Shown here in pieces: positions 24,258-40,239 of a stretch of DNA of 47,047 nucleotides (positions are counted from its first letter, which is position 1; every line of letters starts with the position of its first letter). This stretch comes from an uncultured Candidatus Saccharibacteria bacterium. GTDB lineage: Bacteria > Patescibacteriota > Minisyncoccia > Phycocordibacterales > WO2-35-19. Made by a program: the position numbers and the translations under genes. The DNA lies in contig CAZHPR010000004.1 in NCBI GenBank assembly GCA_964534305.1, positions 1,980 to 49,026 on the forward strand. Direction: 5' to 3'. The notes beneath the pieces are model-generated. The model was given only the letters and a program-made list of their open reading frames with translations. It was not told the origin of the DNA and made no database searches.

Positions 24258-24392
24258 ATGTCAACAACTTATCAACCCAAAAAAAGAAAGAGAGCAAAGA
24301 CACATGGTTTTCTAAAAAGAAAGAAGACTGCTGGTGGTAGCAAGGTCATAAAGAACAGGAGGAGGAAAGGAAGGAAGAAGGTGGCTTTATAA
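24258..24392 (+). CDS. rpmH: 50S ribosomal protein bL34
   Basis: Below the ORF-track cutoff. It reads [44 protein letters not shown] and lies directly upstream of rnpA. Confidence 0.9.
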
Positions 24393-24406
24393 AAGTCTCA
24401 AAACTG

Positions 24407-24733
24407 ATGCTCCCAAAACACAAAAGAGTCTCAAGGGAAGACATGGGTTTTATCAAAAAAGCCAATGTTTTCGGTAGTAATGACCTCTTTTCATTGAGGG
24501 CTATTGAAAAAGGTCTACCAAATTCAAAAATATCATTTTCTGTTTCAAAAAAGGTTGCAAAAAGCGCTGTTGTTAGAAACAGGCTAAGAAGATTTGGATA
24601 CCGATCGGTAGAGAGTATAATAGACAATATAAAAAATTACCTAATAGTTTTTTATTTCAAAAAAATACCGAAGGGTTTTGAGGAAGTAGAAGAAGGTGTT
24701 AAAGATTTATTAAATAAGACCAAAATAAAATGA
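24407..24733 (+). CDS. rnpA: RNase P protein component
   Basis: Basic 108-aa protein in the conserved rpmH-rnpA-yidC order. An RNR-like motif is present (AVVRNRLRR). Confidence 0.85.
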   Translation: MLPKHKRVSREDMGFIKKANVFGSNDLFSLRAIEKGLPNSKISFSVSKKVAKSAVVRNRLRRFGYRSVESIIDNIKNYLIVFYFKKIPKGFEEVEEGVKDLLNKTKIK

Positions 24734-25449
24734 TTTCTTTTTTGAAGACAGTTATATACGAACCTTTATACAACATTTTGGTTCTTATATTGGGTATACC
24801 TTATGTAGATGCTGGTATTGCAGTTATTATACTTACATTGTTTGTAAAGATAGTTCTCTATCCCCTATCCAAAAAAGCAACACAGACTCAAATAGTAATG
24901 AAAGAAAAAGAGTCGGAACTAAAAGAAATAAGAGAAAAATATAAAGACAAACAAGAACAAGCTATAAAAACAATGGAGTTTTATAGGCAAAATAACATAA
25001 ATCCATTTTCTAGTATTCTGACAATACTTATTCAAATACCCATAATTTATGCCCTTTATCACATCTTTCTAAAGTCTGGGTTGCCACTTATACAGACTGA
25101 TATTGTCTATTCTTTTGTAAAAATACCAAGCTCTGTTTCGATGAAGTTTTTGGGATTCTTTGATATCTCAACAAAAAGTATCTTGCTCGCTATTCTCGCT
25201 GCGGTAACGACTTTTATCCAACTTCATCTGTCGTCAAAATCAACAATAAAAGTAAGTTCTGATCCAAAGGATCTCTCTTCTATGATGATGAATCAGATGA
25301 AGTACACCTTCCCTATTGTGGTGTTCTTTATCTCTTGGAGTATTTCTGGTGTTGTTGCTCTATATTGGTTTGTAAGTAACGTACTCGGTATCTTACAAGA
25401 CAGGATAATAAGAAAACAGATAAACTCGCAGACTATTTTTAAAAAATAA
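24730..25449 (+). CDS. yidC: YidC/Oxa1-family membrane protein insertase (short form)
   Basis: Multi-pass membrane protein. The pattern YEPLYNIL...AVIILTLFVKIVLYPLSKK and its position after rnpA support the call. Confidence 0.85.
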   Translation: MISFLKTVIYEPLYNILVLILGIPYVDAGIAVIILTLFVKIVLYPLSKKATQTQIVMKEKESELKEIREKYKDKQEQAIKTMEFYRQNNINPFSSILTILIQIPIIYALYHIFLKSGLPLIQTDIVYSFVKIPSSVSMKFLGFFDISTKSILLAILAAVTTFIQLHLSSKSTIKVSSDPKDLSSMMMNQMKYTFPIVVFFISWSISGVVALYWFVSNVLGILQDRIIRKQINSQTIFKK

Positions 25450-25942: not shown

Positions 25943-27157
25943 CTATTCCACCCTAAGCATCCATAGGTGCTCGTCTATTTTGTTTGTGAATATAAGGTGA
26001 GAGCCGTCGTTTGAGATGTCTATAAAAGATATATCTATATCTTCACCAGATGATTCACTTAGAGATACTATATTTGAATAGAATAGGTTTTCGGTGTCTA
26101 TTCTTCTTATGTTGTCCTTTGTAGAGATCAATCCTTTATACCAAGCGTCCATATATCCAGAAGTGTTGCCTTCTGGGATTGCACAGTACAAATAAACATT
26201 AAACCAGACACATTTTTCAGAAAGTGTGTTTGTATTGAGGCTTGTGCTGTTTAGGTTTTTATCAACTACAGATATATTAAATCCTCCGTTGGAAACAAGG
26301 GTTATATCACCTTTTGGATTAAATGATAAACCAAATCCACTTACAGAAGTTTTTGTTAGTTTGCCTGACACTGTGTCAAATTTGTAGGCAAAGGTCTCTG
26401 CATTCAATGCTGGCTTTGTTTGTATAAAAATGTTTGTGTTGTTAAGCCAGGTGGGAGTTATCTCTAAAATAGGGCTTGTATATATATTTTTTTTGCTAGT
26501 ACCATCGGGATTTGCTACAAACCAGAAAGAAGAAGCGCCTTTGAGATAGTAAAATATTTTTTTACCGTCTGGGCTGATCGACAAACCCTCCATATCTGTA
26601 GGTAGGCTTGAGATTGTTGTTGTATATAATGGCGCGTTTTCGTTTGAAATAGAACTTTTTGAAAGTTTTACAAAACTAGTTTCTATAAAATCGTTGGCCA
26701 CGTCGATTGTTTGTGCTAGGAAACCACTCCCATCCGGCAACCAACTTGCAGAAACAACCTTTGGAATAGTTGTGTTTGTTATCCTTTCTACTCTATTTCT
26801 GTCAGATCTAGCTTCGTAGACATTGCCGGTTCCTTTCTCTACAAATCTTACAAAGGTTGTAGTGCCGACGTTGTATATTACTGCTCCAGCTACTCTATCA
26901 TTCGATATTTTGCGTAGTCTCTTTATTGGGCTATTTTCTTCTGTTGCGACCACCTCTTCTTCTGTATTTGTTTCTGTGTTTCTTGTCTGTTCCCCACTAC
27001 TCCCACTATCGCTGTTGCCAAATGGGAAGTAGTCTCTTATAGAAAAACCAACTCTACTATCCCCTTCTCCATTACCCCCTCGACTAGAGAGCACAAGAAA
27101 GGCAGCAACTCCTATTATCAATATTATTCCTATTATCAATAAAAACTTTTTAGACAT
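25943..27157 (-). CDS. Membrane-anchored PD40/TolB-like beta-propeller repeat protein (last gene of the T4SS-like operon)
   Basis: N-terminal TM anchor. Repeated (S)PDG/NDG motifs (LPDGSGF, SPDGKKIFYY, SNDGSHLIF) are typical of PD40 repeats. Its start lies 1 nt from the upstream gene. Confidence 0.55.
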   Translation of the reverse strand: MSKKFLLIIGIILIIGVAAFLVLSSRGGNGEGDSRVGFSIRDYFPFGNSDSGSSGEQTRNTETNTEEEVVATEENSPIKRLRKISNDRVAGAVIYNVGTTTFVRFVEKGTGNVYEARSDRNRVERITNTTIPKVVSASWLPDGSGFLAQTIDVANDFIETSFVKLSKSSISNENAPLYTTTISSLPTDMEGLSISPDGKKIFYYLKGASSFWFVANPDGTSKKNIYTSPILEITPTWLNNTNIFIQTKPALNAETFAYKFDTVSGKLTKTSVSGFGLSFNPKGDITLVSNGGFNISVVDKNLNSTSLNTNTLSEKCVWFNVYLYCAIPEGNTSGYMDAWYKGLISTKDNIRRIDTENLFYSNIVSLSESSGEDIDISFIDISNDGSHLIFTNKIDEHLWMLRVE

Positions 27158-27158
27158 A

Positions 27159-28067
27159 TTATTTGAAAGTTACGTGCCAGTGTGGAGGACTTGATTCTCT
27201 TAGAAATGTTGCAGTTTGTCCTTCGCCTATTTGAACTGTATATTCTGGGCCCAAAGTTGTTTGTCTAACAGAAATTTGGTTATTAATTATGTAATTATTC
27301 AAGTTTGTATCATTGCTCCTGATATCTACCATTGGCTTACCTTCACCGTGTGTTTTGTGGCCAGCTTCAGTAGCTCCCGTTATTGTTATATTACAAGTTG
27401 GACAATCTAGAGCCAAATTTTTTAGCCCGCTCTGGGCGCTATTGGGTAGTCCGTTTAGGTTTACACAATTTGTTGTTTGTGTACCTTGGCACGGATCAGC
27501 ATAAACTTTAATATTTGGAGAACTTTGCAAAAAAGACCTTATTTGTGCGTCTTCTGTGAGTTGTTGCCCGGATATTGGTGTTCCTGCACCATAACTACCA
27601 GAACTTATTGTTCCCGAGTGTCCAAAAGGGGCGTTTACTTGCGGTAGGCTTAGATCTAAGTTTATGTTAAGTAACTTTGGGTTTATTGTAAAAAGTATCA
27701 ACCAAGCAGCTATCACAAGCACCAAGCCCTGGATTGAGTGCATAAGGCGGGCTCGACCTTCTGATTTTTTCTGTACAGCATCAGTAGAGAGATATTGAAA
27801 ACCACCCCAAACAAGGTTGAGTACCGCAAATGCGGCAGAAAATCCAATAGCGAGGTTAAATATCCCCGGTATGTATTTTTCTAAATTTGTCTCTGTCACC
27901 GGGCTGCTACAAGTACCCTCTCCCCCAACACAGGGTATGGGGGTAAGTAGTGTGTAGTTTTCGGGAACTTCGGGAGCTTGGGCGTTTGCTAAGCCAGGAA
28001 AGACAAAAGCAACAGAAAGTATAAAAATAATGAGTATGGGTATTAATTTTTGAAATCCTTTTTTCAT
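27159..28067 (-). CDS. T4SS pilin-like (VirB2/TrbC-type) protein fused to a C-terminal putative LAS/M15-like zinc peptidase domain
   Basis: Signal peptide (..PGLANA), then a two-helix hairpin IFNLAIGFSAAFAVLNLVWGGFQYLSTDAVQKKSEGRARLMHSIQGLVLVIAAWLILF typical of T4SS pilins. The C-terminus has TGATEAGHKTHGEGKPMVDIR and PPHWHV, which resemble the H..D / H zinc ligand motifs of DD-peptidase-fold enzymes. Confidence 0.5.
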   Translation of the reverse strand: MKKGFQKLIPILIIFILSVAFVFPGLANAQAPEVPENYTLLTPIPCVGGEGTCSSPVTETNLEKYIPGIFNLAIGFSAAFAVLNLVWGGFQYLSTDAVQKKSEGRARLMHSIQGLVLVIAAWLILFTINPKLLNINLDLSLPQVNAPFGHSGTISSGSYGAGTPISGQQLTEDAQIRSFLQSSPNIKVYADPCQGTQTTNCVNLNGLPNSAQSGLKNLALDCPTCNITITGATEAGHKTHGEGKPMVDIRSNDTNLNNYIINNQISVRQTTLGPEYTVQIGEGQTATFLRESSPPHWHVTFK

Positions 28068-28068
28068 A

Positions 28069-29067
28069 CTATTCTTTGAAATTTATATTAAACGAACCCC
28101 TTGGTTGTTGTAGTATCTTTGAGAGGTTCTCAACTGAGAAGTCAATTCTCGATGAGCCACTTACACCTTCAGGTTTTCTAAATATTACAGTCCTTGAGTT
28201 TGCTAGATCACCAGAGCGAGCACCATTTAATCTCCAGCTCAGCGTAGCAGTATTATTTAGAGATGTATAAAACGGAGCGGCCATAATTTCTACTTCCTCT
28301 CCAGATAAGTCTAGGTTGCGAGGGATTGCTCTGTTAAGTATTGGGCCATAAAAAGGACTAATTTCGTAGAAGAGTACCTCTGGTTCTGTTGTTGGTATCT
28401 CTATTATTCCAAAAGCAGCACCACTTTCGGTAGGGCTTGTGACCAACACTTCTACCCGATCTGTTCTACCCAAAAGAGACCCTTCTATCCTCAAAACGTT
28501 TTTACCGTATCCTGATTGTGAATCAAAAGCGTTGGTACCATCTGACCATTTATAAATAAGTTTTTCTTTTGGTATCAAGTCGCCTTTACTGTCCGTAAAA
28601 TCTGGCATTGCAACTATGGTCAAATTGCCTTGTTTTGGATGCAGTGCCTTACCTTTGAAAAATGGTGGTACATAAGAATCCGATTGCCAGATGAGATCTA
28701 CTCCCACCGGCTTTATTTTCATGCTCTTATAAAATGTTTTGCCGTTCGCTAGCTTTACTCTCACCTCTATATTTGTCTCTGTGCCAGAAGGTCCTGAGTT
28801 GAAGCTATAAGTCTTGCGGCCATTTTCTTTTACAAAAATTTTGTTGTCTTGGTTCCAGGTTATCTCGGCTTTGTCCAAGTCTTCGCTGTACATCTCTAGT
28901 TGGATAAAGACGGTACTGTTTGGTTTTGGATATGTCGGTATCACTTCTACATTTAGCTCACTTTGAAGGGCGCCGTCCAGGTTTATGTTGAGTTGAGCAG
29001 AAGTTGCGAGAGGAACCAATAACAGTATTAATAAAATTATGTTTTTATTAAAAAAAGATTTGATCAT
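28069..29067 (-). CDS. Secreted beta-rich protein (T4SS-like operon)
   Basis: Signal peptide (LLVPLATSAQ). The composition suggests a beta-sandwich. No known motif. Confidence 0.5.
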   Translation of the reverse strand: MIKSFFNKNIILLILLLVPLATSAQLNINLDGALQSELNVEVIPTYPKPNSTVFIQLEMYSEDLDKAEITWNQDNKIFVKENGRKTYSFNSGPSGTETNIEVRVKLANGKTFYKSMKIKPVGVDLIWQSDSYVPPFFKGKALHPKQGNLTIVAMPDFTDSKGDLIPKEKLIYKWSDGTNAFDSQSGYGKNVLRIEGSLLGRTDRVEVLVTSPTESGAAFGIIEIPTTEPEVLFYEISPFYGPILNRAIPRNLDLSGEEVEIMAAPFYTSLNNTATLSWRLNGARSGDLANSRTVIFRKPEGVSGSSRIDFSVENLSKILQQPRGSFNINFKE

Positions 29068-29144
29068 TTATAATAATATTATATCAGATATTCACTACGT
29101 GATTGTATATAAGTGTTTGTGGAAATAACGGTTTTAATAAGGAA

Positions 29145-29840
29145 CTACCCATTTGTTTCTTTAGAATTTTGAACACCTTTTATTTTTCTCCTGCTTCCGT
29201 TTATAGCTTTTAGTCCTGCGGAGGCAGCAATCATTGGTAAATTACCAACAATAAACAATGGATTTGATGTAAATACCCCCAAACCTTCTAATAATCCACC
29301 CGAAATACTAGGTTCTTCTCCTTTGTCCTCCATTCTTGTCATTCCTACTATTAGTATCATACCTATGGTCCATGCGAATGAAAGGATTATGGTTGCATCT
29401 TGCCCGGGTATTATTTCAAGTACTCCTTGTATAAAAGCAGTACCAAATTTTTTTGTATTGGATGAGTATGTTACTCCTAGGCTTAAAAACCATATCCAAA
29501 ATACTGTACTTGCACATATAGTTATAAGCGCATTAACTCCCAGAAGACCTATACCAAGCCATTCTAAAATTATTTCTACTATATCTAAAAAAATAGCAGC
29601 TGTAATGAGGAGCCAAGCCATCCAGATTTTTATTCTTTGCTGTTTCTGTACTTGGTTTTGTGTTGCGAGCCCACTACCCTCTTCTGGTAGATAAGAAACA
29701 TTATCCGCGTAGTATTCTGGTGTATCTTCCTCCTCTTCTTGTGTGTCTGCTTCAGCAACTTTTCTCCTACGGGTCATATCTATAAGATAATTCTGTCGCT
29801 GTTTCTGTTCGTATTCATTTTTGGGGATATTATCCGCCAT
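29145..29840 (-). CDS. Polytopic membrane protein with an acidic N-terminal tail (T4SS-like operon)
   Basis: About four hydrophobic helices follow a charged 70-aa N-terminus. Its start codon (29838-29840) lies 2 nt downstream of the VirB4 stop codon (29843-29845). Confidence 0.5.
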   Translation of the reverse strand: MADNIPKNEYEQKQRQNYLIDMTRRRKVAEADTQEEEEDTPEYYADNVSYLPEEGSGLATQNQVQKQQRIKIWMAWLLITAAIFLDIVEIILEWLGIGLLGVNALITICASTVFWIWFLSLGVTYSSNTKKFGTAFIQGVLEIIPGQDATIILSFAWTIGMILIVGMTRMEDKGEEPSISGGLLEGLGVFTSNPLFIVGNLPMIAASAGLKAINGSRRKIKGVQNSKETNG

Positions 29841-29842
29841 CT

Positions 29843-31654
29843 CTATTGATTAGCCTCTTTTTCTAATTGTTTTGCTTTTTTTATTGCAAGTACTTGAGAA
29901 GGGTCAGAAGTTATAATCTGGTCTTCGGTATAAGAAGATATTATTTTAATTGCGACGTGTTTGAGTCCAGCAAAGAAGATCCCCTCCCCCACTCCAGACT
30001 CGAGGAGCAGGTACTTTTCTTCATCGGTGAGATTGAAGGCTTCTTTGAGCTTGTCTATCGTTGTTGGAGATTGCTTTAGAAGTACTTGAATAGAAGAGTT
30101 TGTGATGATAGGTAGTCCATAAGGAGAGTTGAGGAAGTCGCCCACGTCTTGAGTGATTGTCGCAAGGCCTAGGAAATATTTCCTGCCTCTTTTTGCAAGA
30201 GAGAGCAAGAAGGATGCGGTGTCTTCTGATTTCATCATCCACCAAGCTTCGTCCACTACCAGTAGCCTCTTTTTTATATTCTTGCGTATTGCGTTCCATA
30301 TATAATGAGTGACGATATACATCGCGATAGGCTTGAGCTCGTCTTCCATGTCTCTAATTGAGAAGACCACAAATTTCTTGTTTATATCGATGTTTGAAGG
30401 TCTGTTTATGAAGTTTGACCAGGTGCCCTTTGTGTATTTTGAAAGTCTCTGAGCGAGCGACTCTCCTCCTTCCATACCACCAAGCACCAACTCAAAGTCT
30501 GAAAGAAGCGGTGGTTCTATATTTTTGAAGTCAGAATCAGCGGTTATATCTTTGAGTGCATAAGTTTCTGTGATTGCTCGATCTATGATCGCATCCTCCT
30601 CTGGAGTAAGACCACCCATCATTATACGGAAGAGGCCAACGAGGCTTATAATCTGGCTTCTAAGGACGTTTGAACTAGACTCATCTTCGCTAGGGACTGG
30701 TAGTTCAAATGGGTTTATATGATGATCGGAGTTTAGAGATATATTGAAATACCTACCACCCACCGCCTCTGCCATATATTGATATTCGTTTTCTGGATCG
30801 ATAACCAAAACCTCGGTGTCGAACATAAGAGTCCTGAGTATTTCAAGTTTGGTTGCATAAGATTTACCAGCACCAGAACGAGCAAGAGTTACAGAGTTGT
30901 AGTTTTCCAAAGAAAATCTATCAAAGAGGATGAGAGAAGAGTTGTGTCTATTGATACCATAGAGTATCCCCTTGTCCGACGTGAGGTCAAACGATACAAA
31001 AGGAAAGATGCTTGAAAGAGGAGGAGAATTTATCTTTGAATGAACTTCGAGCTCGTCTTTTGATATTGGCAAAATACTTCTAAAACCTTGCTCCTGTTGG
31101 AAAAGAGCCGGCTTTACATAGACTAGCTTCGCTTCCATTATAGACTTTATTTCTGACTCTATTTTGTCTAGCTCCTCGCTTGTGTTGCCATAAATAGAGA
31201 TATAAAGTCCAACCTCAAACATTTTTTCTTGGGCTTGTTGTAGCTGGTCTCTTAGGTTTTCGAGATCTTGATAGGCTGTATCTAGTACTGGATCACGCAC
31301 CAAACCCTTCTCTTCCCTTATCCTTATTTGGCTCTGCACCTCAGCAACCTTTTTTTGGAATGTTCTGAGAACCTTTGCGGTTTCTAGTGGGTGAACAAAT
31401 ATAGAAATATCAAACATTTTGTCCATATTTATGATTGGAGCAAACCAACTTTCTGTAAGGAATCTAGGATAAGAGATCACAAAGAAACTTCTAACCATCT
31501 TTTCCCCCAAGTTTAGCTCCTTTGCATTTATCTTGAGGGCGCTAGGCGCTAAGATATCCTTGAGCTCTAGCTCGGGCGCGTCTGCTACTCCGCTCGGAAG
31601 GATGGATGTGATGGAAACCTTTTTTTCTTCTTTTTTCTTAAAAAAATCAAACAT
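29843..31654 (-). CDS. virB4: VirB4/TrsE/PrgJ-family type IV secretion ATPase
   Basis: Walker A ARSGAGKSYATKLE, Walker B RLLVVDEAWWMM, and the N-terminal VirB4 domain pattern (..GEKMVRSFFVISYPRFL..). Length is 603 aa. Confidence 0.85.
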   Translation of the reverse strand: MFDFFKKKEEKKVSITSILPSGVADAPELELKDILAPSALKINAKELNLGEKMVRSFFVISYPRFLTESWFAPIINMDKMFDISIFVHPLETAKVLRTFQKKVAEVQSQIRIREEKGLVRDPVLDTAYQDLENLRDQLQQAQEKMFEVGLYISIYGNTSEELDKIESEIKSIMEAKLVYVKPALFQQEQGFRSILPISKDELEVHSKINSPPLSSIFPFVSFDLTSDKGILYGINRHNSSLILFDRFSLENYNSVTLARSGAGKSYATKLEILRTLMFDTEVLVIDPENEYQYMAEAVGGRYFNISLNSDHHINPFELPVPSEDESSSNVLRSQIISLVGLFRIMMGGLTPEEDAIIDRAITETYALKDITADSDFKNIEPPLLSDFELVLGGMEGGESLAQRLSKYTKGTWSNFINRPSNIDINKKFVVFSIRDMEDELKPIAMYIVTHYIWNAIRKNIKKRLLVVDEAWWMMKSEDTASFLLSLAKRGRKYFLGLATITQDVGDFLNSPYGLPIITNSSIQVLLKQSPTTIDKLKEAFNLTDEEKYLLLESGVGEGIFFAGLKHVAIKIISSYTEDQIITSDPSQVLAIKKAKQLEKEANQ

Positions 31655-31707
31655 TTTTTGTTTTTACCATAATTCTTGATTCATACTTCATGATTCTAAA
31701 ATTAGCG

Positions 31708-32328
31708 TTAGCTAATTTTTATGGGCTTTTCTGATTCACCTGGATTAAACACTTTATAAAACATCTCTACAACTTCTTCTGTACCCAACTTTGCAACTCT
31801 TATACCGCATCTTGTAAGGCCTTGTTCTACAACCCCTATCCTCTGCTCTAGCTGGTTTCTACTTTCCTCAAAATCTTCTTGTTTTTGTGAGCTACTTCTC
31901 TCTCCCCCAAGACCAAAAGGCAAAACATTTTTTGTTGATATTATTGCATTCTCGTACGGTATGATGATAAAGAAGTTTTTGGTCATTATGCTCGTTGATT
32001 CTGTAAATGTTTTTACGAAATCTATGTATTGTTCTATCTGGATCTTCATCAAATCATTAGTCTGCTCCTTGTATCGCTCCTCAAGCAATGCTACATAAGG
32101 TCTGATATCAAGCCTTCTTGATTGAACTAATATTTGGACAGAGAAATCAAGAGAGTTTAAAAAGTCCTGAAATTGGTAAAGGATAGCCTGTCTCTCATCA
32201 TCTGATTTTAGAGAAAAGTTTATAGATGAGGCCATGAGTACTGCTCGCATACCCCCCTCTTTGAGAACTATTATGCCGTCTCTCACATCTTCTATTGGTA
32301 CAAATTCTTGAGTTGCATTCTTTGTCAT
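31708..32328 (-). CDS. Hypothetical protein resembling a stand-alone VirB4 N-terminal domain
   Basis: EFVPIEDVRDGIIVLKEGGMRAVLMASSINFSLKSDDERQAILYQFQDFLNSLDFSVQILVQS resembles the N-terminal region of Gram-positive VirB4-like ATPases. No P-loop. Confidence 0.4.
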   Translation of the reverse strand: MTKNATQEFVPIEDVRDGIIVLKEGGMRAVLMASSINFSLKSDDERQAILYQFQDFLNSLDFSVQILVQSRRLDIRPYVALLEERYKEQTNDLMKIQIEQYIDFVKTFTESTSIMTKNFFIIIPYENAIISTKNVLPFGLGGERSSSQKQEDFEESRNQLEQRIGVVEQGLTRCGIRVAKLGTEEVVEMFYKVFNPGESEKPIKIS

Positions 32329-32378
32329 AAGGTTTATTTTACCCTGTCTTTTGATTCCTAGCTACTAAATACTGAGTA

Positions 32379-32795
32379 CTAGCTACCTATGTTTTCTTTT
32401 TCTCCCTTCTTTACATCCAATTGCCAGTTTAGATCCTTGAGCTTGCTACTTGAAAGGTTTGGTACCACAAGAGAAGTGTATTTTGTTTCCTTTATACTTG
32501 GATCTTTTTGTTCGATAGGGTTCTTTTTCCATATATATAGCTTTTCTCCCATCAAATATTTGAAAGCGGACTCAACTGCATTTATAAACGGCCTATTGTT
32601 TACTCTATAAAAAGCGAGCGCCAGTGAAAGTATGATTATTGGAGAAGCAACAACAAGCCCAAAGAAAAGCCCAAGAAAGGTTACCGATACTACAGCTACA
32701 CTTGCTCCTCCAGCAAGGTAAATAAACTGTTTTAATGTAAAAGGGCCAAATATCTTGTCTTCTACATCTATAAATTGTGGGACTTGAAATCTCAT
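32379..32795 (-). CDS. PrgI-family (VirB3-like) small membrane protein
   Basis: MRFQVPQFIDVEDKIFGPFTLKQFIYLAGGASVAV followed by two TM helices. This is the PrgI family pattern as I recall it. Confidence 0.65.
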   Translation of the reverse strand: MRFQVPQFIDVEDKIFGPFTLKQFIYLAGGASVAVVSVTFLGLFFGLVVASPIIILSLALAFYRVNNRPFINAVESAFKYLMGEKLYIWKKNPIEQKDPSIKETKYTSLVVPNLSSSKLKDLNWQLDVKKGEKENIGS

Positions 32796-32880
32796 ATTAG
32801 CTTAGAGCTCAGAGCTTAAAGCTAAGAGCCATACAAATTATATCTTTTATTCCTCTAAGCTCAAAGCTTTTAGCTAAAAG

Positions 32881-33417
32881 CTACTCTGCGGGTTCTCTAT
32901 AAGGATCCGATCCGCTGTACCCTATTGAATTATGTATTACCCCTCGGTTATTATTTTCCTCTGTTGGCAAATTGTGTGGAACCTGGCTACTAGATGCTTG
33001 CTGCTCGGTACTGATTCCAATCGGTCTCATCGCCTTTGCTTGATTCACAAGTATTTGTTCGTAGGAGTTTGGAGCAAACTTCTCTGTCTCCTTTGTTTCG
33101 ACTGTGTTTTCTTCAGGAAATAATTCGCTATACGGTTCCAAAATATCCTTCTCTATACTTTCTGTAATCCATTCTGCGATATTTCTGTCTATCCCTAATT
33201 CTCTTATGATGTTCTCTGTTAGGTCTTCATAAGGTGTTAATCCGATTAGTACATTGAAAACATGATATTCTAGTGAGATAATTTTATCTTCTTCTAATTT
33301 AAATTGAGAAACACTTTCTTTTAAAGTTTTCACCCACAATATGTCCAAGACAAATTTCCTCGCCTCTCCCGGTAGATTATCCAGCTGATCCTTTATTATT
33401 TTTTGAGAGTCATCCAT
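32881..33417 (-). CDS. Hypothetical soluble protein (T4SS-like operon)
   Basis: 178-aa ORF with no TM segment or signal peptide and no known motif. Confidence 0.45.
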   Translation of the reverse strand: MDDSQKIIKDQLDNLPGEARKFVLDILWVKTLKESVSQFKLEEDKIISLEYHVFNVLIGLTPYEDLTENIIRELGIDRNIAEWITESIEKDILEPYSELFPEENTVETKETEKFAPNSYEQILVNQAKAMRPIGISTEQQASSSQVPHNLPTEENNNRGVIHNSIGYSGSDPYREPAE

Positions 33418-33429
33418 AATTATTTTTTA

Positions 33430-35556
33430 TTACTGGCTTGGCTCAGTTTTTTCCTTCTTGTCTTCTTCTTCTTTCTCTAACAAACCTTGATCCCTTAAGA
33501 ATTTTTCCATTTCTTTTTTACTTTTCTTGTCTTTACCCTCAGCTGCTTCAATGATTTTTCGTGCTGCCTCTTGATTCCCCTGCATTCTACCTATAAAACC
33601 AATGCCCAAAGGTCCTCTCTTTATTCTTGCGGCAAATTCTTTCATTCTGTTTTTACCAGCATCTTTATTTGATTCCCACTCCTTCTTTTTCTTTATAGTC
33701 TCTTCGTCGTATTCAGCGTCATCAAACTTATTATCTTTATTCTTTTTCCTTAGATCAGAATTTATATTATTTATTTGAGACAGTCTGTTTCTGGATTCTT
33801 TTATTTTATCACTGTACTCCTTTTGTTTTTGTAAAGAACCACTCGAAGCTTTTGCGTTATTTTCGTTCTCTTCTATTTCTTTCTTTATTTTCTCTATTTC
33901 TTCCTCATTTTTCTTTATTTCTAATTCCCTTTGTTCTTTTATTTTTACCTCATCATTTAATTTTAATTTGTTGTACTCAGCTTCAGCAGTCTTTGACATC
34001 TCACCCTCTAGTGTTGTTTGTCCATAATATTTCTTTGCATAATCAACCTCAGCTTTAGCTTTTTCTTCAATTGCCTTACTGAAGCCGCCCTTTCCTCCTG
34101 CTTTGCCTAGTATATCCATACCCTTGTCTAATCCAAGAGCTTTTCCTGCACCTGTTCCGCCGATAGACCTCATATCAAAACTACTTCCAGCGGCTTGGCC
34201 AGCTGTCCAAAGTTTCATTCTTGCACCAATATTTCCTGCAGCAGCCTTGTCTCTCAAGTCCTTATCGTTTGCAATACTCAGAGCTTTTCTTCCTATAGTA
34301 TTTCTACCTGCCCAAGCTACTGTACCAACAGCGGCACCACCTAGCGCTGTTGAGACGGCGGTAAAACCAGCGACAGAGGAAGCCATTTTTTTGGCGGTGG
34401 TGAGGGCAAAGATTGAGAAACCGATGATGATAAAATAGTTTATGACCAGGCCCATGGCACTTTTTGGCTCTGTTATGATTTGAGTAAAAGGATATGGGCT
34501 AGACCGTACTCCATTCAAAAAGTTTTCACTCCCACCTATCTTGAACACAACCCATGTAAGCGCAAAGAAAACCGGGGCAAAGAAAGATTGATTTATAAGC
34601 GCGTTCAACCATTCTCTAAACCTCCCATTCATACCAGGGATAATAAACATAACAAAGGCGACAGGAGAGAGGATCATTATAAAGATAAGGATCACAAACC
34701 TGGAGACAAACATTATGCTGGCTATAAATAGTATAATTGCAAAAATAAGTGAGAATATAGCAGTCATTATACCGATTAAGAGTATATTTGAAGCACCATT
34801 CACATTTGCTGCGGGGCTCCAGAAACTATGAATACCAAGCATTCTCATATAACCAGCAGAGATTCCACTAAATAGGAAAGGAGTACCCGCTTCTTTTTTT
34901 TCAATACCACCATCCTCAGTGAGGTTTATTGTGTATTGCCCTGAATTGATTATTGCTCTATAAAACCCAAGGGAGACGACGTTGGAAGCATCTATCACAA
35001 CTTTTGAGAAGAAAAGACTGAAGTTAATGACTAAGGCAATTATTATTATCCAAACAATATTGCGCCCAACATTACCAACACTACTCGTAAACATAGCATT
35101 GAATGCTGTGTAAAGTAGTACAAATATAAATACCATGTTTGCGATGTCTCGGAGGGTCGTCCATGCCGATGTGATACTTACCCCTATACCAGAGTCTGGG
35201 CCAAGGTTTTTACTCATGTCCCTTACTGTAAACTCTATGACTCCATCAAAAAACAAGCCAGATATAAGAACAAAAAAACCAGAAATTCTTTGCAGTATCA
35301 TTCCTTGCCACTGTGCCCACCATTCAAATAAGAAGAAGTTATCAGCAATATTAAAAAGTCCTTTCGCAACTTCTTTTGCTGTAGTGGCTCTTCCTCCAGT
35401 TCCAACAGCTCCATTACCACAAATTTCTTGACCAGTTTCTGGCGCTAATGTACCTTGACTACCATCCGGACACACTGCCCCAACTCCAACAGGAACAACA
35501 GAAGTTGCCAGAATTACAAACAATATTCCTGCTGTTATTATTTTTTTTATCAACAT
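33430..35556 (-). CDS. VirB6/TrbL-like polytopic membrane protein with a long Lys/Glu-rich coiled-coil C-terminus
   Basis: Signal/anchor, at least 6 hydrophobic helices over about 400 aa, then KE-rich low-complexity sequence. The size, topology and position next to the PrgI-like and VirB4 genes fit VirB6/TcpH-type channel proteins. Confidence 0.55.
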   Translation of the reverse strand: MLIKKIITAGILFVILATSVVPVGVGAVCPDGSQGTLAPETGQEICGNGAVGTGGRATTAKEVAKGLFNIADNFFLFEWWAQWQGMILQRISGFFVLISGLFFDGVIEFTVRDMSKNLGPDSGIGVSITSAWTTLRDIANMVFIFVLLYTAFNAMFTSSVGNVGRNIVWIIIIALVINFSLFFSKVVIDASNVVSLGFYRAIINSGQYTINLTEDGGIEKKEAGTPFLFSGISAGYMRMLGIHSFWSPAANVNGASNILLIGIMTAIFSLIFAIILFIASIMFVSRFVILIFIMILSPVAFVMFIIPGMNGRFREWLNALINQSFFAPVFFALTWVVFKIGGSENFLNGVRSSPYPFTQIITEPKSAMGLVINYFIIIGFSIFALTTAKKMASSVAGFTAVSTALGGAAVGTVAWAGRNTIGRKALSIANDKDLRDKAAAGNIGARMKLWTAGQAAGSSFDMRSIGGTGAGKALGLDKGMDILGKAGGKGGFSKAIEEKAKAEVDYAKKYYGQTTLEGEMSKTAEAEYNKLKLNDEVKIKEQRELEIKKNEEEIEKIKKEIEENENNAKASSGSLQKQKEYSDKIKESRNRLSQINNINSDLRKKNKDNKFDDAEYDEETIKKKKEWESNKDAGKNRMKEFAARIKRGPLGIGFIGRMQGNQEAARKIIEAAEGKDKKSKKEMEKFLRDQGLLEKEEEDKKEKTEPSQ

Positions 35557-35606
35557 TTTTTAAGAACCAACCCTCTCCCCTTCTACCTGCTTCTCACCCT
35601 CAGGTC

Positions 35607-37166
35607 TTATCTGTTTATTGCAAGTGGAAGATTTGGAGAGATTATTACGGTGCATGTATCTGTGTTTGTGCCATCAGAAACTGTGATCTGGTAAGTGCCG
35701 TTTTGGGAATAAGAAGTACTAAACTGGGTGCCCGCTCCGGAGACCTTGGTGCTCCCTGTCGCTGTCCAGCTGTAGCTGCCACTACCACCGGAAGCAGTTA
35801 GGTTTGGAATTACAGAATAAGTGTTGAACCATCTTGTACTCTTTGGAGAACAAGATACTGTTGTAGGCGCAGTACAAGCCTTTACATCAAAGCTGGCTGA
35901 CTTGAGCGTGCCACCTACATTTGCCTGTTTTTTCCAAGTACCGATGTGTCCGCTGTTCCAGGTCCATCCGTAGTCGCTCCAACCAGAACCTGTGCCTTGT
36001 GCTGTCATCTTGAATCCATAATCAGCGTCAACTTCTTGGGTGATAACGTTGTTTTTGTAAGAAGTCCAAAGTACTTTGTATCCGACAAGTCCTAGGCCCC
36101 CAGTTATTGAATATTTTGGAGTTTCGCCTACGCAGTAGCTAGCTTTGTCTGAGGTTAGGTTGCCTAGAGCGTAATAGTTTGGATCTGTTGTGTTGGTAGG
36201 TGGTGTTTGGGTGTTGGGTGTAGTGTTTGTTGGTACGTAAGTAAATCCAGAAGTGAGTTTGTTGTAATCTGCAATAATTTTATCCATTATGGATTTTATA
36301 TTTGCAAGGAATGTTTGTAGATCGGTGCTTACTGTTGTTTTTGTACCTGCTCCTCCGGTTGTGGCCCCTCCACCAGTTGTTGTCCCAGCACTTCTATTGT
36401 TTGCGCTGATGTCTGTTGAAGTTCTTCTTATTGTTGTAGTTGGGGTCCGTGGGCTCCAAGAAGAAGGGTTTGAACTGCCGAAATAGTTGCTTGCACCTAT
36501 TGCGCAGTTTGCAGATCCGGCTGTAACTCCAGATGTTCCTGCGGCGGTATTTGCAAGGTCGCAAGGTAGTATGTTCCAACCAGCACTTCTTTGGTAATTG
36601 CTTCCAAAGATATAATCATTTGCATCATAGCCTGTCTTGCCTGGGTATCTTTGTACCGGGGCTCCTGTGCCTGTATAACCTACAAGGTCTAAGTCATAAA
36701 AACCAGAAACTCCGTTTATCGTACAAGCTCCATAATACGCATTAACTGTCTCTCCAGTAGGTGTTGAGTTTAGGGATAACTGTTCTGATCTTGTTTCTAC
36801 ATTACAGTCTATATTGTACCCAAGCGCCTTACCTTGAGCTTCTGCCAAGTCAGCACAAGCCTTTGCTGCGGCTGCATCGTATCTTATGTTGCCAGTACAT
36901 TGTTGCCCGAAGGAACTATTGTTGGTGGAAGGAGGGGTGACAGTGCCTGTCCCCCCAGAGCTCGTACCTCCTGGGTTTGTGTTGAGTCCTCCTCCCCAAG
37001 ACTGATCACAGAGCGCGGCGTCATTAGTACAAGATCCGTTGTTGCACCTGTATGGAGCAATACTTGGACAAGTGCTATCTGTCTGTGCGCTTGCGCCAGT
37101 ATCAAAACTTAGAAACGATACCGCTATTAAAATGACGAGCAATAAAATTGTGGTTATTTTTTTCAT
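35607..37166 (-). CDS. Secreted Gly/Thr/Ser-rich surface protein with a C-terminal PKD/Ig-like domain (candidate adhesin)
   Basis: Signal peptide (..DTGASAQ), paired Cys, and T/G/S tracts. The C-terminal SGGSGSYSWTATGSTKVSGAGTQFSTSYSQNGTYQITVSDGTNTDTCTVII is PKD-like. Confidence 0.55.
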   Translation of the reverse strand: MKKITTILLLVILIAVSFLSFDTGASAQTDSTCPSIAPYRCNNGSCTNDAALCDQSWGGGLNTNPGGTSSGGTGTVTPPSTNNSSFGQQCTGNIRYDAAAAKACADLAEAQGKALGYNIDCNVETRSEQLSLNSTPTGETVNAYYGACTINGVSGFYDLDLVGYTGTGAPVQRYPGKTGYDANDYIFGSNYQRSAGWNILPCDLANTAAGTSGVTAGSANCAIGASNYFGSSNPSSWSPRTPTTTIRRTSTDISANNRSAGTTTGGGATTGGAGTKTTVSTDLQTFLANIKSIMDKIIADYNKLTSGFTYVPTNTTPNTQTPPTNTTDPNYYALGNLTSDKASYCVGETPKYSITGGLGLVGYKVLWTSYKNNVITQEVDADYGFKMTAQGTGSGWSDYGWTWNSGHIGTWKKQANVGGTLKSASFDVKACTAPTTVSCSPKSTRWFNTYSVIPNLTASGGSGSYSWTATGSTKVSGAGTQFSTSYSQNGTYQITVSDGTNTDTCTVIISPNLPLAINR

Positions 37167-37181
37167 AATATTTTTGTTAAT

Positions 37182-38537
37182 TTATCTTGGCTGACAATCC
37201 AAATTTCTATAAGCGTCTGCGAAGGGAATACCCTGACTCGAAGACACTTCGTTTGCCATTTGATTTAATTCTGAATCCGAATAGTTGGTACAATCCGGGT
37301 CCAAGGGCCTGTTTGCTGTGCCACCCCCAATAAACTGACTAACATCCGACGGGGTAACTAGAGTACTATTTGTTGGTACTCCAGAGGTAGGATCTGGGGC
37401 TGGGGTATTTTGTGTTTGGACGGCTGTATCTATATTTTCATCAAAATATCCGCAGAACTTGACTGCTGGATCGCAAGAAGAAGAATTATCTGCTTGTTGC
37501 GCTGCGGTGTTGCTTTTTTGGTTTAATATATCTGTAAATACTCTGCCTCCTGTGCCGCTGGGCTGACTTGCTCCAAAGAGACCATTACCAACTCCTCCTA
37601 TAACCCTGTTTAGCATCTGGTTGAGCAGGGCGCTTACTATCTCATTTATTTCATCAGCAACAGCGAGTTTTTCGTTACCGATACCGAGTACATTGTTTAG
37701 TTGGTCTTCAATCACGCTTCCTGGGGTTACTATCTTTTCCTCTATACATTTTGGAGGAACATCAGGTAGAGCTTGGTTTATTGGATCCCCATAGATTTCA
37801 TTGCCCTCAGCGTCTATACCTATTAGCTGCCTTTCGCCTGTTATCGTCTCACCTTGTACTGCTTCAGAATATCTTGCACAAGTCTTTTTGGACAAGAATC
37901 CAGTACCCCAACCGAGTTGCATTCTAGCACTCTCTGATCTTGAGTTGAGTTGGGCGCTCAGCTCACTCTGAGCTTGAATATAAGCACCTATTGGGTTGTT
38001 TTGTTGTCTCTGGGTTACCTCAAAGAAGTTGTCCCAACCTCCTTGACTAAAGTCGTTCATGAAGTTTTCGAGATTGTTCCCGACCTGGCTTAGAGTACAA
38101 GACCACTGCCTTTCTCCTATATAGTTTTGTGTCAGCGCAAGCCTGACCCTTGCTGATATTGGTCCGCAGAGACTACCAAGTCTAGGGTCTTTCATTATAA
38201 AGTCGCCAGCTATCTTATCCCCAAGGTCTAGGAAGTACTTTTCTGGATCCTGGACGTAAGCTGGAGAACCTTTGAAACCACTGTTTATCCAATTGACAGT
38301 AGATGCAGTTACCCTCTCGATGATCATATTTACTGTCTGTACCGCTACTGCGTCTAGAGCATACTCTTTCATAAAGGTACTCCAATCAGCTGTTGAAGAA
38401 ATAGCATTTGGGACAAAGTTTCCTGGGTCCCAAGTTACCCATTGCGCTTCTGCCTTTCTGCTAAAAAATGGCAAGAAAGAAGAAGTAAACATAACCGCTA
38501 TGATTGCAAAGGAGAATAGTTTTTTATGTTTTTCCAT
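37182..38537 (-). CDS. Secreted protein (possible VirB5/TrbJ-like minor pilus component)
   Basis: Signal peptide (..SRKAEAQ), then WVTWDPGNFVPNAISS and helical Q/N-rich segments. The functional analogy is weak. Confidence 0.35.
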   Translation of the reverse strand: MEKHKKLFSFAIIAVMFTSSFLPFFSRKAEAQWVTWDPGNFVPNAISSTADWSTFMKEYALDAVAVQTVNMIIERVTASTVNWINSGFKGSPAYVQDPEKYFLDLGDKIAGDFIMKDPRLGSLCGPISARVRLALTQNYIGERQWSCTLSQVGNNLENFMNDFSQGGWDNFFEVTQRQQNNPIGAYIQAQSELSAQLNSRSESARMQLGWGTGFLSKKTCARYSEAVQGETITGERQLIGIDAEGNEIYGDPINQALPDVPPKCIEEKIVTPGSVIEDQLNNVLGIGNEKLAVADEINEIVSALLNQMLNRVIGGVGNGLFGASQPSGTGGRVFTDILNQKSNTAAQQADNSSSCDPAVKFCGYFDENIDTAVQTQNTPAPDPTSGVPTNSTLVTPSDVSQFIGGGTANRPLDPDCTNYSDSELNQMANEVSSSQGIPFADAYRNLDCQPR

Positions 38538-38546
38538 TTTATAAAA

Positions 38547-39419
38547 TTATATCCCGTAAAATAGATAGTATCCACCACTACCCTGTTTATATGTAATACC
38601 TTTTGACATCAAATATTCTGCAGTTGACCTCATTGCTGTTATAAAGGTTATTGCCCCTTCCTGGTATCGCTTCATACCTTCAAGACCGAGTACCGGATCT
38701 TTCTCAATACTAGCCATATCTAAAAGAGCAAAACTAACCCTTCTTAGGCTATTTGCCATATCTAGATGTGCATCAGCAAATCTGAGGGGAACCCCCATCA
38801 TCATCAGATTGTAGGACATTTTTTCGTATGTTTTTGCTACTCCTTCCAACTTTGAAAGCTCCTTTATATTGCCGCCGACCATCGCCTCTTGGAGTACCGA
38901 AAGCTCATTGGTAAAGCCATTTTTTTTGTTTGCTTTTATAAAACTCCCCAAAACTTCACCATATTCTTGCATTTGTTTTGTATCACTGTCAGGCAACAGA
39001 GAAAGCTGGCTTCTTCTAAATGTTTTAAAATCTTCTTTTTCTACAAGCTCTTGGGTCTGATCCACTAAGTTTTGAGCAGAAGCTACGCTTACTTGGTTGT
39101 TTTGTTTTAAAACAAGGTAGTTTGATATAAGAGTTTCTGATACCTTATCGGTATAGCTGGTTTGGGTATCTTCTTCTGCCACTTTGTTTTCAACTATGTT
39201 TACCTGAGCATTGTCGCTTACGGTGTCAAGCTCGTCTTGCCAAGAATTCCTCTCTGGTATTGTTACCTTTGAACCGCTGACGATGTTGCCCAAAGAACCT
39301 ATTGTTTGTTTACTCTTTCTTTCTCCTGCTACGATTACAATCGAAATAACTAGGGCAACTGTAACCACTAGCATGCTTATGATTTTTCTACTAGGCAATT
39401 TGCTCTGTTTTGGATCCAT
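38547..39419 (-). CDS. Bitopic membrane protein, first gene of the T4SS-like operon (possible VirB8-like role)
   Basis: Start taken at ATG 39419 (MDPKQSK...); the ORF track's TTG at 39446 is also possible. It has a single TM (IISMLVVTVALVISIVIVA) followed by a roughly 250-aa extracytoplasmic domain. Confidence 0.45.
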   Translation of the reverse strand: MDPKQSKLPSRKIISMLVVTVALVISIVIVAGERKSKQTIGSLGNIVSGSKVTIPERNSWQDELDTVSDNAQVNIVENKVAEEDTQTSYTDKVSETLISNYLVLKQNNQVSVASAQNLVDQTQELVEKEDFKTFRRSQLSLLPDSDTKQMQEYGEVLGSFIKANKKNGFTNELSVLQEAMVGGNIKELSKLEGVAKTYEKMSYNLMMMGVPLRFADAHLDMANSLRRVSFALLDMASIEKDPVLGLEGMKRYQEGAITFITAMRSTAEYLMSKGITYKQGSGGYYLFYGI

Positions 39420-39479
39420 ACACCGTAAATAATAGCAAGAAAACAAATTTTATTTATTTATTTTGGGGGAAAAATAACC

Positions 39480-40238
39480 TTAAATATTTTTTGCCAGCTC
39501 AAACCATTGATCCAAGCCAATATCTTCAGCTCTTATCTTTTCTGAAATACCCAACCTTTCAAAAACTTTTTTGTCTGCAGCCAGGTTTTTTATCAGAAAC
39601 TTTCTTTTGTGAGAAAACCCAAGCTTTAGTATTTCAAAGAAATGCTCTTCTGAAACCTGGTTTTCCAAAAATTTATCTTTGTTTATATTTTTTATTGTAA
39701 GGATTGCCGAATCTACCTTGGGTCTAGGGAAGAAACTCCCCTTTTTTATCACTCCTCCGTATTTTGGCTCGCCATAAGCCTTTATTGAGATACTCAGGAT
39801 ACTTTCCTTTTTATTTTTTGCGATTATCCGCTCGGCAACCTCTTTTTGGATTACAAAAGTAATAGATTTTGGTTGGTTGCTGCTCTCCAGAAACTTTCTA
39901 AAAATCTCCCCAGTTATGTAGTAAGGGATGTTGCCTACCAATTTAAAATTTAAAATTTCAAATTTAAAATTTAGGATATCTCCGACTATTATCTCTAGTT
40001 TGTTGTCTGTAATCTCTTTGCTAAAAATTTCTTCTAAATTTTTAGCAAGCAACTCGTCTTTTTCTACTGCGATTACCTTTTTTGCAATCTTTAGGAGTTC
40101 GAGAGTGAGGCTCCCCTTCCCGGGGCCTATCTCAATTACCGTATCATTCTCGTTTATTTCTGCGCTGTCAGCAATCTTTTTTAGTATCTTGGGGTCGCTA
40201 AGAAAATTCTGCCCCAATGATTTTTTGGCTTTCATCAT
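39480..40238 (-). CDS. rsmA: 16S rRNA (adenine1518/1519-N6)-dimethyltransferase
   Basis: LGQNFL and the SAM-binding motif VIEIGPGKGSLT. Length is 252 aa. Confidence 0.9.
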   Translation of the reverse strand: MMKAKKSLGQNFLSDPKILKKIADSAEINENDTVIEIGPGKGSLTLELLKIAKKVIAVEKDELLAKNLEEIFSKEITDNKLEIIVGDILNFKFEILNFKLVGNIPYYITGEIFRKFLESSNQPKSITFVIQKEVAERIIAKNKKESILSISIKAYGEPKYGGVIKKGSFFPRPKVDSAILTIKNINKDKFLENQVSEEHFFEILKLGFSHKRKFLIKNLAADKKVFERLGISEKIRAEDIGLDQWFELAKNI

Positions 40239-40239
40239 T

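Follow-up and report, generated by a model that had tools for sequence, protein, structure and literature searches.

A cluster of twelve genes, g1 to g12 in order of transcription, occupies positions 25943 to 39446 on the minus strand of the 47,047-nucleotide stretch of DNA analyzed here (the window; contig CAZHPR010000004.1 of assembly GCA_964534305.1, from an uncultured Candidatus Saccharibacteria bacterium, read here as a Paceibacteria/Zambryskibacteria genome). We consider it very likely that this cluster is the Paceibacteria form of the chromosomal type IV secretion system (T4SS) of Patescibacteria, derived from mating-pair-formation class FATA (MPF-FATA), vertically inherited by the replication origin and uncoupled from conjugation. 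As judged from the sequence, its products would make up a membrane machine of VirB4, VirB3 and VirB6 type with one pilin and a set of Sec-exported or anchored accessory proteins (g1, g2, g10 and g12), and no DNA-processing or coupling module is present in cis. An earlier note on this DNA had framed the cluster as uncharacterised biology. That framing did not hold, since the system has already been published as the T4SS of Patescibacteria (PMC10633639, PMC12102498, PMC12857230), Paceibacteria context included, and the locus, a conserved core chromosomal operon beside oriC, is an additional case of it. One unusual detail of the locus is worth following up, namely the fusion of its pilin to a variable C-terminal domain.

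The VirB4 motor and its membrane partners

The ATPase of the cluster is encoded by g8 (29843..31654, 603 aa). The protein scored 375 bits against the NCBIfam model conju_CD1110 (cut-off of 325 bits), covering model positions 183-733, and 92 bits against Pfam P-loop_TraG, whereas the HerA DUF87 model gave 28 bits. Its Walker A (GAGKSY) and Walker B (DEAW) motifs, which the earlier note had pointed out, are intact in the sequence. When hidden Markov models (HMMs) were ranked by score, CD1110 (375 bits) was followed by Mbov_0397 (263), TraC-F (180), VirB4_CagE (119), Bacteroides TraG (65), CedB (33.8) and TcpF (21). The nearest solved structure is the crystal structure of VirB4 (PDB 4AG5, E = 6e-41), and g8 is 26% identical to residues 225-772 of PrgJ from pCF10. 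The nearest plasmid homologues come from Bacillota and Actinomycetota (27-36% identity), 36% being the best value found outside Patescibacteria. Judged by this ranking of HMM scores, and not by a tree, g8 is a VirB4 of CD1110/MPF-FATA type that lacks the N-domain, which agrees with the Gram-positive-type machine proposed earlier. Assignment of g8 to the HerA/FtsK-type ATPases was ruled out by the CD1110, P-loop_TraG and 4AG5 matches.

The gene directly upstream, g7 (31708..32328, 206 aa), encodes a TrsD-like protein that scored 36.5 bits against the NCBIfam TrsD model, under the whole-protein cut-off. It also matched positions 100-236 of the Mbov_0397 VirB4 model (E = 1.5e-11) and positions 2-119 of the CD1110 VirB4 model, both below cut-off, and holds a precomputed Pfam match to PF26593 (TraC-like). 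Because g7 matches the VirB4 N-terminus, a region that is absent from g8, VirB4 appears to be split into a detached N-terminal domain (g7) and an ATPase (g8), in keeping with the VirB4-N-domain-like protein described before. Two genes upstream of g8, g6 (32379..32795, 138 aa) encodes a membrane protein with a transmembrane hairpin that belongs, as previously suggested, to the PrgI/VirB3 family (PF12666, 38 bits against a gathering cut-off of 27).

The evidence for a VirB6/TrbL-like protein encoded by g4 (33430..35556, 708 aa) is transitive. The protein begins with a signal peptide, is predicted to cross the membrane about 5-6 times and ends in a K/E-rich tail of approximately 220 residues; it gave no direct match in Pfam or NCBIfam, and a profile search of the PDB returned no usable match. 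Twelve of its 40 remote homologues match TrbL/VirB6 PF04610 (best E = 6e-5). The remote homologues also include one with a TrbL_4 match, one bearing PF19590 and one to which NCBI gives the name 'type IV secretion system protein'. Alignment of the g4 family with hhalign against its positional equivalent in the CD1110-type T4SS locus of Pontibacillus gave a probability of 86%, and against PrgH, a single-sequence template too weak for this purpose, of 2%. g4 lies upstream of the PrgI-VirB4 genes, in the same place as prgH in pCF10. Taken with position and topology, the homologues support a VirB6/TrbL-like assignment as the earlier note had it, for which the window protein taken alone is no proof.

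The pilin fusion

A single VirB2-type pilin is predicted from g11 (27159..28067), and no second pilin gene was found in the window. The protein matched T4SS_pilin PF18895 with 37.9 bits (cut-off of 26.6) and the Mycoplasma/Bacillota Mbov_0395 pilin-like family with E = 2.5e-5, which bears out the pilin fusion claimed earlier, and 5 of 43 orthologues match TrbC PF04956. A signal peptide is followed by two transmembrane segments. In the AlphaFold2 (AF2) model, with a predicted local distance difference test (pLDDT) score of 79, helices 62-94 and 98-128 form the hairpin of the pilin module (approximately residues 36-135), after which come a disordered linker and a confidently folded alpha/beta domain, with pLDDT mostly above 90 over residues 170-300. 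Local HMM searches found the pilin module in all 48 syntenic orthologues examined, 47 of which bear a C-terminal tail of at least 71 residues.

The C-terminal domain (approximately residues 160-302) gave no significant Pfam match in the window protein, and Foldseek with the full-length g11 model returned nothing significant, the only matches being spurious ones to histidine kinases driven by the helical hairpin. Residues E234, H237, H240, D248, E291 and H296-W-H298 are invariant in 21-36 homologues, and so are the zinc-binding and catalytic motifs sought for LAS peptidases (M15 VanY/VanX, M23, Hedgehog-N), H-x(6,7)-D and [E]...H-x-H. The profile of the domain aligns TEGGH...H..G.AVD with the zinc site of Hedgehog-N (LAS fold) at a non-significant E = 0.23, and syntenic orthologues match Peptidase_M15_4 (three members), VanY (P0040) or SLT. 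A zinc-peptidase-like domain of LAS/Hedgehog type, resembling peptidase M15 and Hedgehog-N, is therefore the probable identity of this head. Only 16 of the 48 syntenic orthologues share the window-type domain, and the rest carry other peptidase-like, coiled-coil or Ig-like heads. Pilin-head fusions are not mentioned in the portions of PMC12102498 covered by a term search.

A hairpin that does not polymerise would give g11 another role: it would only tether a VirB1-type hydrolase to the membrane, and this enzyme would breach the wall of its own cell to let a pilus-less channel of Gram-positive type assemble. We regard this as a tentative possibility that deserves serious weight. A membrane-anchored hydrolase follows VirB4 in pCF10 (PrgK) and in Pontibacillus (an M23 endopeptidase), g11 lies three genes after VirB4 and is the only pilin gene at hand, and several of the large C-terminal domains found in 47 of the 48 orthologues are hydrolases (M15_4, VanY, SLT). 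However, many orthologues bear non-enzymatic tails (coiled-coil, Ig-like) that fit a displayed head better, the pilin module has been kept without exception, and a separate M23/LysM peptidase gene is located nearby (42461-43450).

Conservation and chromosomal context

A scan of one genome per GTDB species yielded 581 stretches that encode relatives of g8, and the best 80 (L001-L080) were used for the comparisons. The VirB4 proteins of these best 80 are 77-88% identical to g8, and the members that bear a taxon name are all Patescibacteria, labelled Zambryskibacteria, Paceibacteria/Paceibacterota, Parcubacteria or, loosely, 'Saccharibacteria'. Judged by similarity and not by phylogeny, g8 appears to belong to the Patescibacteria VirB4 clade. 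In about 45 fully flanked loci from different species the genes follow the order uvrD, ksgA, g1, g2, g4, (g5), g6, g7, g8, (g9), g10, g11, g12, yidC/rnpA, dnaA, dnaN, and because this order recurs we read the cluster as a chromosomal operon next to the replication origin that has been inherited vertically, and not as an integrative and conjugative element (ICE).

The median identity to the window proteins was 80% for VirB4, 63% for TrsD, 62% for DnaA, 52% for PrgI, 35% for g11, 33% for both g2 and g10, 30% for both g4 and g12 and 24% for g1, and DnaN is about 45% identical across the same genomes. The T4SS motor ranks with the best-conserved proteins of the origin region and is more constrained than DnaA in the same genomes, a comparison in which the ranking of the loci by VirB4 similarity introduces a mild bias favouring VirB4, and the exported parts diverge fast. 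Within the best 80 loci, g6 was present in 75, g7 and g10 in 77 each and g12 in 64. Sequence homologues of g5 and g9 were found in 18 and 12 loci, respectively. The gap between the VirB6 and PrgI genes is nonetheless gene-sized (540-1939 nt) in 53 of the 53 loci measured, and that between VirB4 and g10 has a median of 499 nt (interquartile range 333-644) over 70 loci measured. Since gaps of g5 and g9 size are kept although the sequences are rarely detected, the conserved core is counted as 11 genes, g3 being the one lineage-specific gene.

These data also bear on the view that the cluster is the mating-pair-formation module of an ICE, intact or degraded, with a relaxase, a coupling protein and an integrase encoded beyond the limits of the window. 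The CD1110 VirB4 family is typical of Gram-positive conjugative elements, and VirD4 homologues are common elsewhere in Patescibacteria genomes (PMC12102498). Against this, the same gene order from ksgA to yidC/dnaA is found in about 45 species, with VirB4 more conserved than DnaA; no integrase or relaxase and no flanking repeat accompany the cluster, and no marked GC discontinuity was seen at its borders. Moreover, of the 3,035 Patescibacteria genomes surveyed just 103 were reported to have relaxases, and no more than 15 of their 109 genes are close to virB4 (PMC12102498). An origin from an ICE or plasmid was ruled out by the conserved chromosomal synteny and by the lack of relaxase, type IV coupling protein (T4CP) and integrase genes in the window, and we give the view as a whole almost no credence.

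Components sought in the window

The scan of the window took in all ORFs of at least 100 aa on the forward strand of their gene blocks, and no VirD4/TcpA coupling protein, relaxase or integrase was found among them; the approximately 49-kb source contig likewise holds no VirD4, relaxase or integrase. In Logan, the exact VirB4 sequence was found only on contigs of 5-10 kb. These results, together with the absence of VirB11 from the window, confirm what the earlier note had stated on missing components. To our knowledge, VirB11 is absent from Gram-positive-type systems. The one T2SSE-family ATPase, encoded at 12607-14340, was considered as a hidden VirB11 and rejected as such, since it is of PilB/GspE type (470 bits versus 49 for VirB11). 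This solitary type IV pilus ATPase, on the plus strand and with an MshEN N-domain, is flanked by an ORF of 149 aa of no known family and by ruvB, with no adjacent pilus genes. The other sizeable ORFs encode replication and repair proteins (RuvA/B/C, Fpg, PolA, UvrD, DnaA, DnaN), cell-wall proteins (Mur ligase, PBP1, M23/LysM peptidase), proteins of translation and RNA metabolism (TsaE, TyrRS, IF3, L20, KsgA, RnpA, SpoU methylase), YebC, YidC, a reverse transcriptase and two DUF559 endonucleases.

A machine that lacks these components could serve in DNA uptake, as a ComB- or Ced-like importer that feeds nucleotides or genes to an auxotrophic cell. ComB and Ced work without T4CP or relaxase, g8 shows a weak CedB match (33.8 bits), a UvrD/PcrA helicase gene lies directly upstream of the cluster, and T4SS genes of the ABY1 class adjoin comF, recG and radA (PMC12102498). 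However, the CedB score of 34 bits compares with 375 for CD1110, and uvrD and ksgA are housekeeping genes that adjoin the origin region. Competence of Southlakia, in addition, requires type IV pili as well as ComEC; deleting comEC abolished competence and left viability intact, whereas the T4SS is essential (PMC12857230). An importer of DNA thus seems improbable.

The system could also be a translocator of protein effectors into a host bacterium or archaeon, possibly by way of a distant VirD4 homologue. Protein export was put forward as an alternative by Wang et al. (2023; PMC10633639), T4CP homologues are near-universal in Patescibacteria though distant from virB4 (PMC12102498), and the fast evolution of g2, g3, g10 and the pilin head is what one would expect of host-facing proteins. 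On the other hand, no candidate effector, chaperone or T4CP was found in the window, the exported products encoded here all bear Sec signals and need no cytoplasmic entry gate, and in Southlakia the T4CP homologue is dispensable while the T4SS genes are essential (PMC12102498). On balance we hold such a translocator to be unlikely, if worth keeping in mind.

Comparison with known systems

The system was described by Wang et al. (2023) in Cell as an 'apparent T4SS' of Southlakia epibionticum that is closest to Gram-positive conjugative systems (PMC10633639); it has pilins, no recognisable coupling or relaxase proteins, and is essential for epibiotic growth (PMC10633639; PMC12857230). In the survey of 3,035 Patescibacteria genomes by Quiñonero-Coronel et al. 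(2025) in Microb Genom, 2,425 VirB4 proteins form one clade nested in MPF-FATA, with TrsD, PrgI/VirB3, VirB6 and VirB2-like pilins encoded near virB4, and the T4SS cluster of Paceibacteria lies near dnaA, dnaN, rnpA and ksgA (PMC12102498). The window shares with this clade the MPF-FATA-descended VirB4, the adjacent TrsD, PrgI/VirB3, VirB6-like and VirB2-like pilin genes, the chromosomal location, the lack of a nearby relaxase or T4CP gene and the Paceibacteria position by dnaA, dnaN, rnpA and ksgA. Saccharimonadia differ, as exemplified by the Southlakia cluster SEML1_0006-0019, in that their short pilin genes come in arrays of 2-11 and that a peptidase and a lysozyme are encoded separately, downstream of virB4, whereas the window has a single pilin with a hydrolase-like head along with DUF4141, Ig-repeat and TolB-like propeller proteins. 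Neither the pilin fusion nor the DUF4141, Ig-repeat and propeller proteins of the window are described in the examined parts of PMC12102498 and PMC10633639.

The MPF-FATA prototype, the Prg/Pcf system of pCF10 from Enterococcus faecalis, resembles the window in the succession of VirB6-like PrgH, PrgI, CD1110-type PrgJ and then a cell-wall hydrolase function. Unlike the window, pCF10 encodes the coupling protein PcfC, the relaxase PcfG, the adhesins PrgA/PrgB/PrgC and the VirB8-like PrgL but lacks a pilin, and its VirB4 is one undivided protein of 796 aa, whereas in the window VirB4 is split, a pilin is present and DNA-processing genes are absent. Loci of the TrsD-containing subclass (Trs of pGO1/pSK41), the Mycoplasma ICE and the Mbov_0395/Mbov_0397 loci of Bacillota have, like the window, a separate TrsD-like gene that immediately precedes VirB4 and a hairpin protein resembling a pilin; a large polytopic protein comes before one of PrgI size, and a metallopeptidase is encoded beyond VirB4. 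They differ in that their VirB4 is about 35% identical, that they reside on mobile elements or chromids, and that the pilin-like products, of 151 aa in Pontibacillus, are short and lack an enzymatic head. The closest VirB4 outside Patescibacteria among the matches, about 35% identical, is that of the Pontibacillus sp. ALD_SL1 chromid NZ_CP062975.1 (350-362 kb; locus L081), where the genes for a pilin-like, a large polytopic, a PrgI-sized and a TrsD-like protein and VirB4 are followed by a metallopeptidase gene. This locus, directly upstream of a flagellar gene cluster, is annotated as non-mobilizable, and its annotated neighbours include neither a relaxase nor a T4CP. Because it has both a split VirB4 and a pilin-like gene, these traits are not unique to Patescibacteria.

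Like the window, Bordetella Ptl, Brucella VirB, Helicobacter ComB and crenarchaeal Ced have no VirD4 coupling protein and no relaxase. In Ptl the substrates or building blocks arrive at the machine after Sec export, and in ComB and Ced DNA moves inwards. With the exception of the archaeal Ced, these systems belong to diderms and differ from the window in having a VirB7/9/10 core and usually VirB11; none of the four is a core origin-proximal operon or has been shown to be essential for growth.

Operon structure and accessory products

The coordinates of the twelve co-directional ORFs and the gaps of 1-85 nt given earlier were reproduced, the intergenic gaps from g1 to g12 being 9, 15, 50, 12, 85, 50, 53, 2, 77, 1 and 1 nt. 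Topology was assigned by simple hydrophobicity analysis, which agreed for all 12 products with the labels (bitopic, secreted, soluble or polytopic) that they had received before. By this analysis g5, g7 and g8 are soluble, and g2, g3 and g10 carry cleavable Sec signal peptides ending in A-x-A/Q (cleavage before Q). A scan for promoters and terminators gave nothing beyond the expectation from shuffled sequence and leaves the operon boundaries undefined.

The cluster opens with g1 (38547..39446), a bitopic membrane protein of 299 aa with one transmembrane segment (residues 22-40). It matched no Pfam or NCBIfam family and gave only spurious matches in a profile search of the PDB; orthologues of about 24% identity occupy the same position in 32 related loci. 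The ORF starts with TTG and an ATG 9 codons downstream (MDPKQ...) is equally plausible as a start, in which case the 5' limit of the cluster may be at 39419.

The product of g2 (37182..38537, 451 aa) is a secreted, Cys-containing and mostly helical protein with an N-terminal DUF4141 motif. It scored 23 bits against PF13605, under the cut-off of 30, many of its homologues hold a precomputed match to this family, and a weak match to the TrbJ N-terminus (E = 0.07) was also obtained. The AF2 model is helical but poor (pLDDT of 61), Foldseek found nothing in the PDB with E below 1, and a profile search of the PDB gave no usable match. The g2 homologue of the related loci abuts the VirB6-like gene, with a median gap of 4 nt. 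In the conjugative transposons of Bacteroides, traJ is the VirB6 homologue and traG the gene for a VirB4-type ATPase. DUF4141 proteins adjoin traJ and lie near traG in those elements (PMC10434189). Since g2 has a DUF4141 motif beside a VirB6-like gene together with the faint TrbJ match, it is a candidate VirB5/TraI-like partner of VirB6, and we put forward the hypothesis that it is possibly a VirB5 analogue.

The next gene, g3 (35607..37166), encodes a secreted G/T/S-rich protein of 519 aa with 14 Cys, for which neither Pfam and NCBIfam nor a single-sequence PDB search gave a match, so that the former label of 'PKD-like' found no support. It was detected in only 2 of 80 related loci, the closest relatives of the window (L002 and L005), and because g2 and g4 are adjacent elsewhere it is taken as a lineage-specific insertion outside the conserved core. 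The small acidic soluble protein g5 (32881..33417, 178 aa) has no transmembrane segment and no family match in Pfam or NCBIfam. The same databases gave no match for g9 (29145..29840, 231 aa), a small polytopic membrane protein with an acidic cytoplasmic N-terminus.

Downstream of g9, g10 (28069..29067, 332 aa) encodes a secreted beta-rich protein with a repeated W-x-x-N/D-G motif, and its family profile weakly matches the Ig domains of phage T4 Hoc (E = 0.007), which weakly suggests Ig-like repeats. The last gene of the cluster, g12 (25943..27157, 404 aa), had been called an anchored PD40 propeller protein. The N-terminal anchor was confirmed (residues 5-23), while the TolB-like (PD40) beta-propeller is weakly supported by a PD40 match with E = 0.006, by PD40 or DUF5050 matches in 5 of 38 orthologues and by repeated matches of the family profile to TolB structures (E = 0.01-0.16).

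Flanking genes and other features of the window

The upstream flank (39480..42246) holds uvrD/pcrA (40240-42246; Pfam UvrD-helicase) and ksgA (39480-40238; Pfam RrnaAD) on the minus strand, the same as that of the cluster. With gaps of 1 nt between uvrD and ksgA and of 33 nt between ksgA and g1, both genes may be co-transcribed with the cluster. Divergent from uvrD and three genes from g1, the gene at 42461-43450 on the plus strand encodes a protein with two LysM domains and a Peptidase_M23 domain, which could be the VirB1-type hydrolase reported to be associated with virB4 in Paceibacteria (PMC12102498).

The downstream flank (21508..25449) comprises, by Pfam matches, dnaN (21508-22605) and dnaA (22803-24146) on the minus strand and rnpA (24407-24733) and yidC (24730-25449) on the plus strand. 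Two genes for DUF559 (Vsr/MTES_1575-like) endonucleases were found in the window, one at 15768-16118 on the plus strand and the other at 25482-25868 on the minus strand, directly downstream of g12 and between the T4SS cluster and yidC. DUF559 homologues occur at varying positions within the cluster in two of the related loci (L045 and L057), which suggests a small mobile or selfish gene.

Away from the cluster, a complete diversity-generating retroelement is located at 4143-6743 on the minus strand, with a reverse transcriptase gene (4143-5246; RVT_1, E = 2e-24), a template repeat (5551-5666) and a variable repeat (5968-6083) in the 3' end of an ORF of 265 aa (5946-6743) that belongs to no known family. 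Each repeat spans 116 nt, and the 17 mismatches between them all fall on adenines of the template repeat. Finally, the 3' end of a tRNA-Lys gene (7807-7880), at 7852-7881, is repeated with 80% identity 174 nt downstream (8026-8055), which may be the remnant attachment site of a lost integrated element.

Proposed mechanism and significance

Under the reading of the cluster as an origin-proximal Patescibacteria T4SS uncoupled from conjugation, Sec and YidC would insert the pilin hairpin into the membrane and would export g2, g10 and g12. A VirB4 hexamer anchored by PrgI/VirB3 would then pull pilin from the membrane onto the VirB6 platform, g2 might serve as a VirB5-like cap, and a short filament or conduit would arise at the surface without the help of a coupling ATPase. 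The variable pilin head, here LAS-type zinc-peptidase-like, could cut peptidoglycan, either of the cell's own wall in a VirB1-like role or of the host's. The purpose of such a structure is likely to be host contact and exchange in episymbiosis rather than DNA transfer. The scheme is consistent with classical systems, whose pilus biogenesis does not depend on VirD4, and with the lack of VirB11 in Gram-positive-type systems. From the structure of the R388 T4SS, Macé et al. (2022) are said to have implicated VirB2, VirB3, VirB4, VirB5 and VirB6 in pilus biogenesis, and the set predicted in the window, with a VirB5-like candidate, matches.

Several points weigh against this reading. No VirB8-like bitopic NTF2-fold protein was found, g1 and all the other products being unmatched, and VirB8 is rarely detected in Patescibacteria (PMC12102498). 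One or more T4CP homologues occur in 2,918 of the 3,035 genomes of the same survey, so that a VirD4 homologue is probably present elsewhere in the genome and passage of substrates via a distant T4CP is conceivable. The data on essentiality come from Saccharimonadia, a different class with a different gene arrangement that includes pilin arrays (PMC10633639). The VirB5-like role of g2 draws on a sub-threshold motif and on gene position, with a poor model and no fold match, and the LAS assignment of g11 on motifs and profile matches that are not significant (E of about 0.2), with a null Foldseek result for the full-length model. In addition, a globular C-terminal domain of 167 aa is atypical for VirB2 and might block polymerisation of the pilus.

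A more specific proposal for g11, which we offer as speculative and rather doubtful, is that of a modular pilin fusion, in which the VirB2 hairpin is polymerised by the VirB4/VirB3/VirB6/DUF4141 machine and the species-variable heads (LAS here, and VanY, SLT, Ig-like or coiled-coil in other species) are displayed on the filament, so that an enzyme-studded pilus would drill the host wall and establish the episymbiotic junction. If true, this would be a type of T4SS output undescribed before, in which the pilin brings its own cargo and can do without a coupling protein. As it stands, what this analysis contributes is finer annotation rather than biology of a new kind; concrete, testable handles are offered by the fusion of pilin and hydrolase and by the DUF4141 protein.

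Patescibacteria account for a large share of bacterial diversity and apparently live on other cells, and their T4SS is the only one shown to be essential for growth, in Saccharibacteria. The locus shows the complete Paceibacteria version of this system, with its 11-gene core and one lineage-specific gene, and the combination of a constrained motor with fast-diverging exported parts is the pattern expected of a host-facing organelle.

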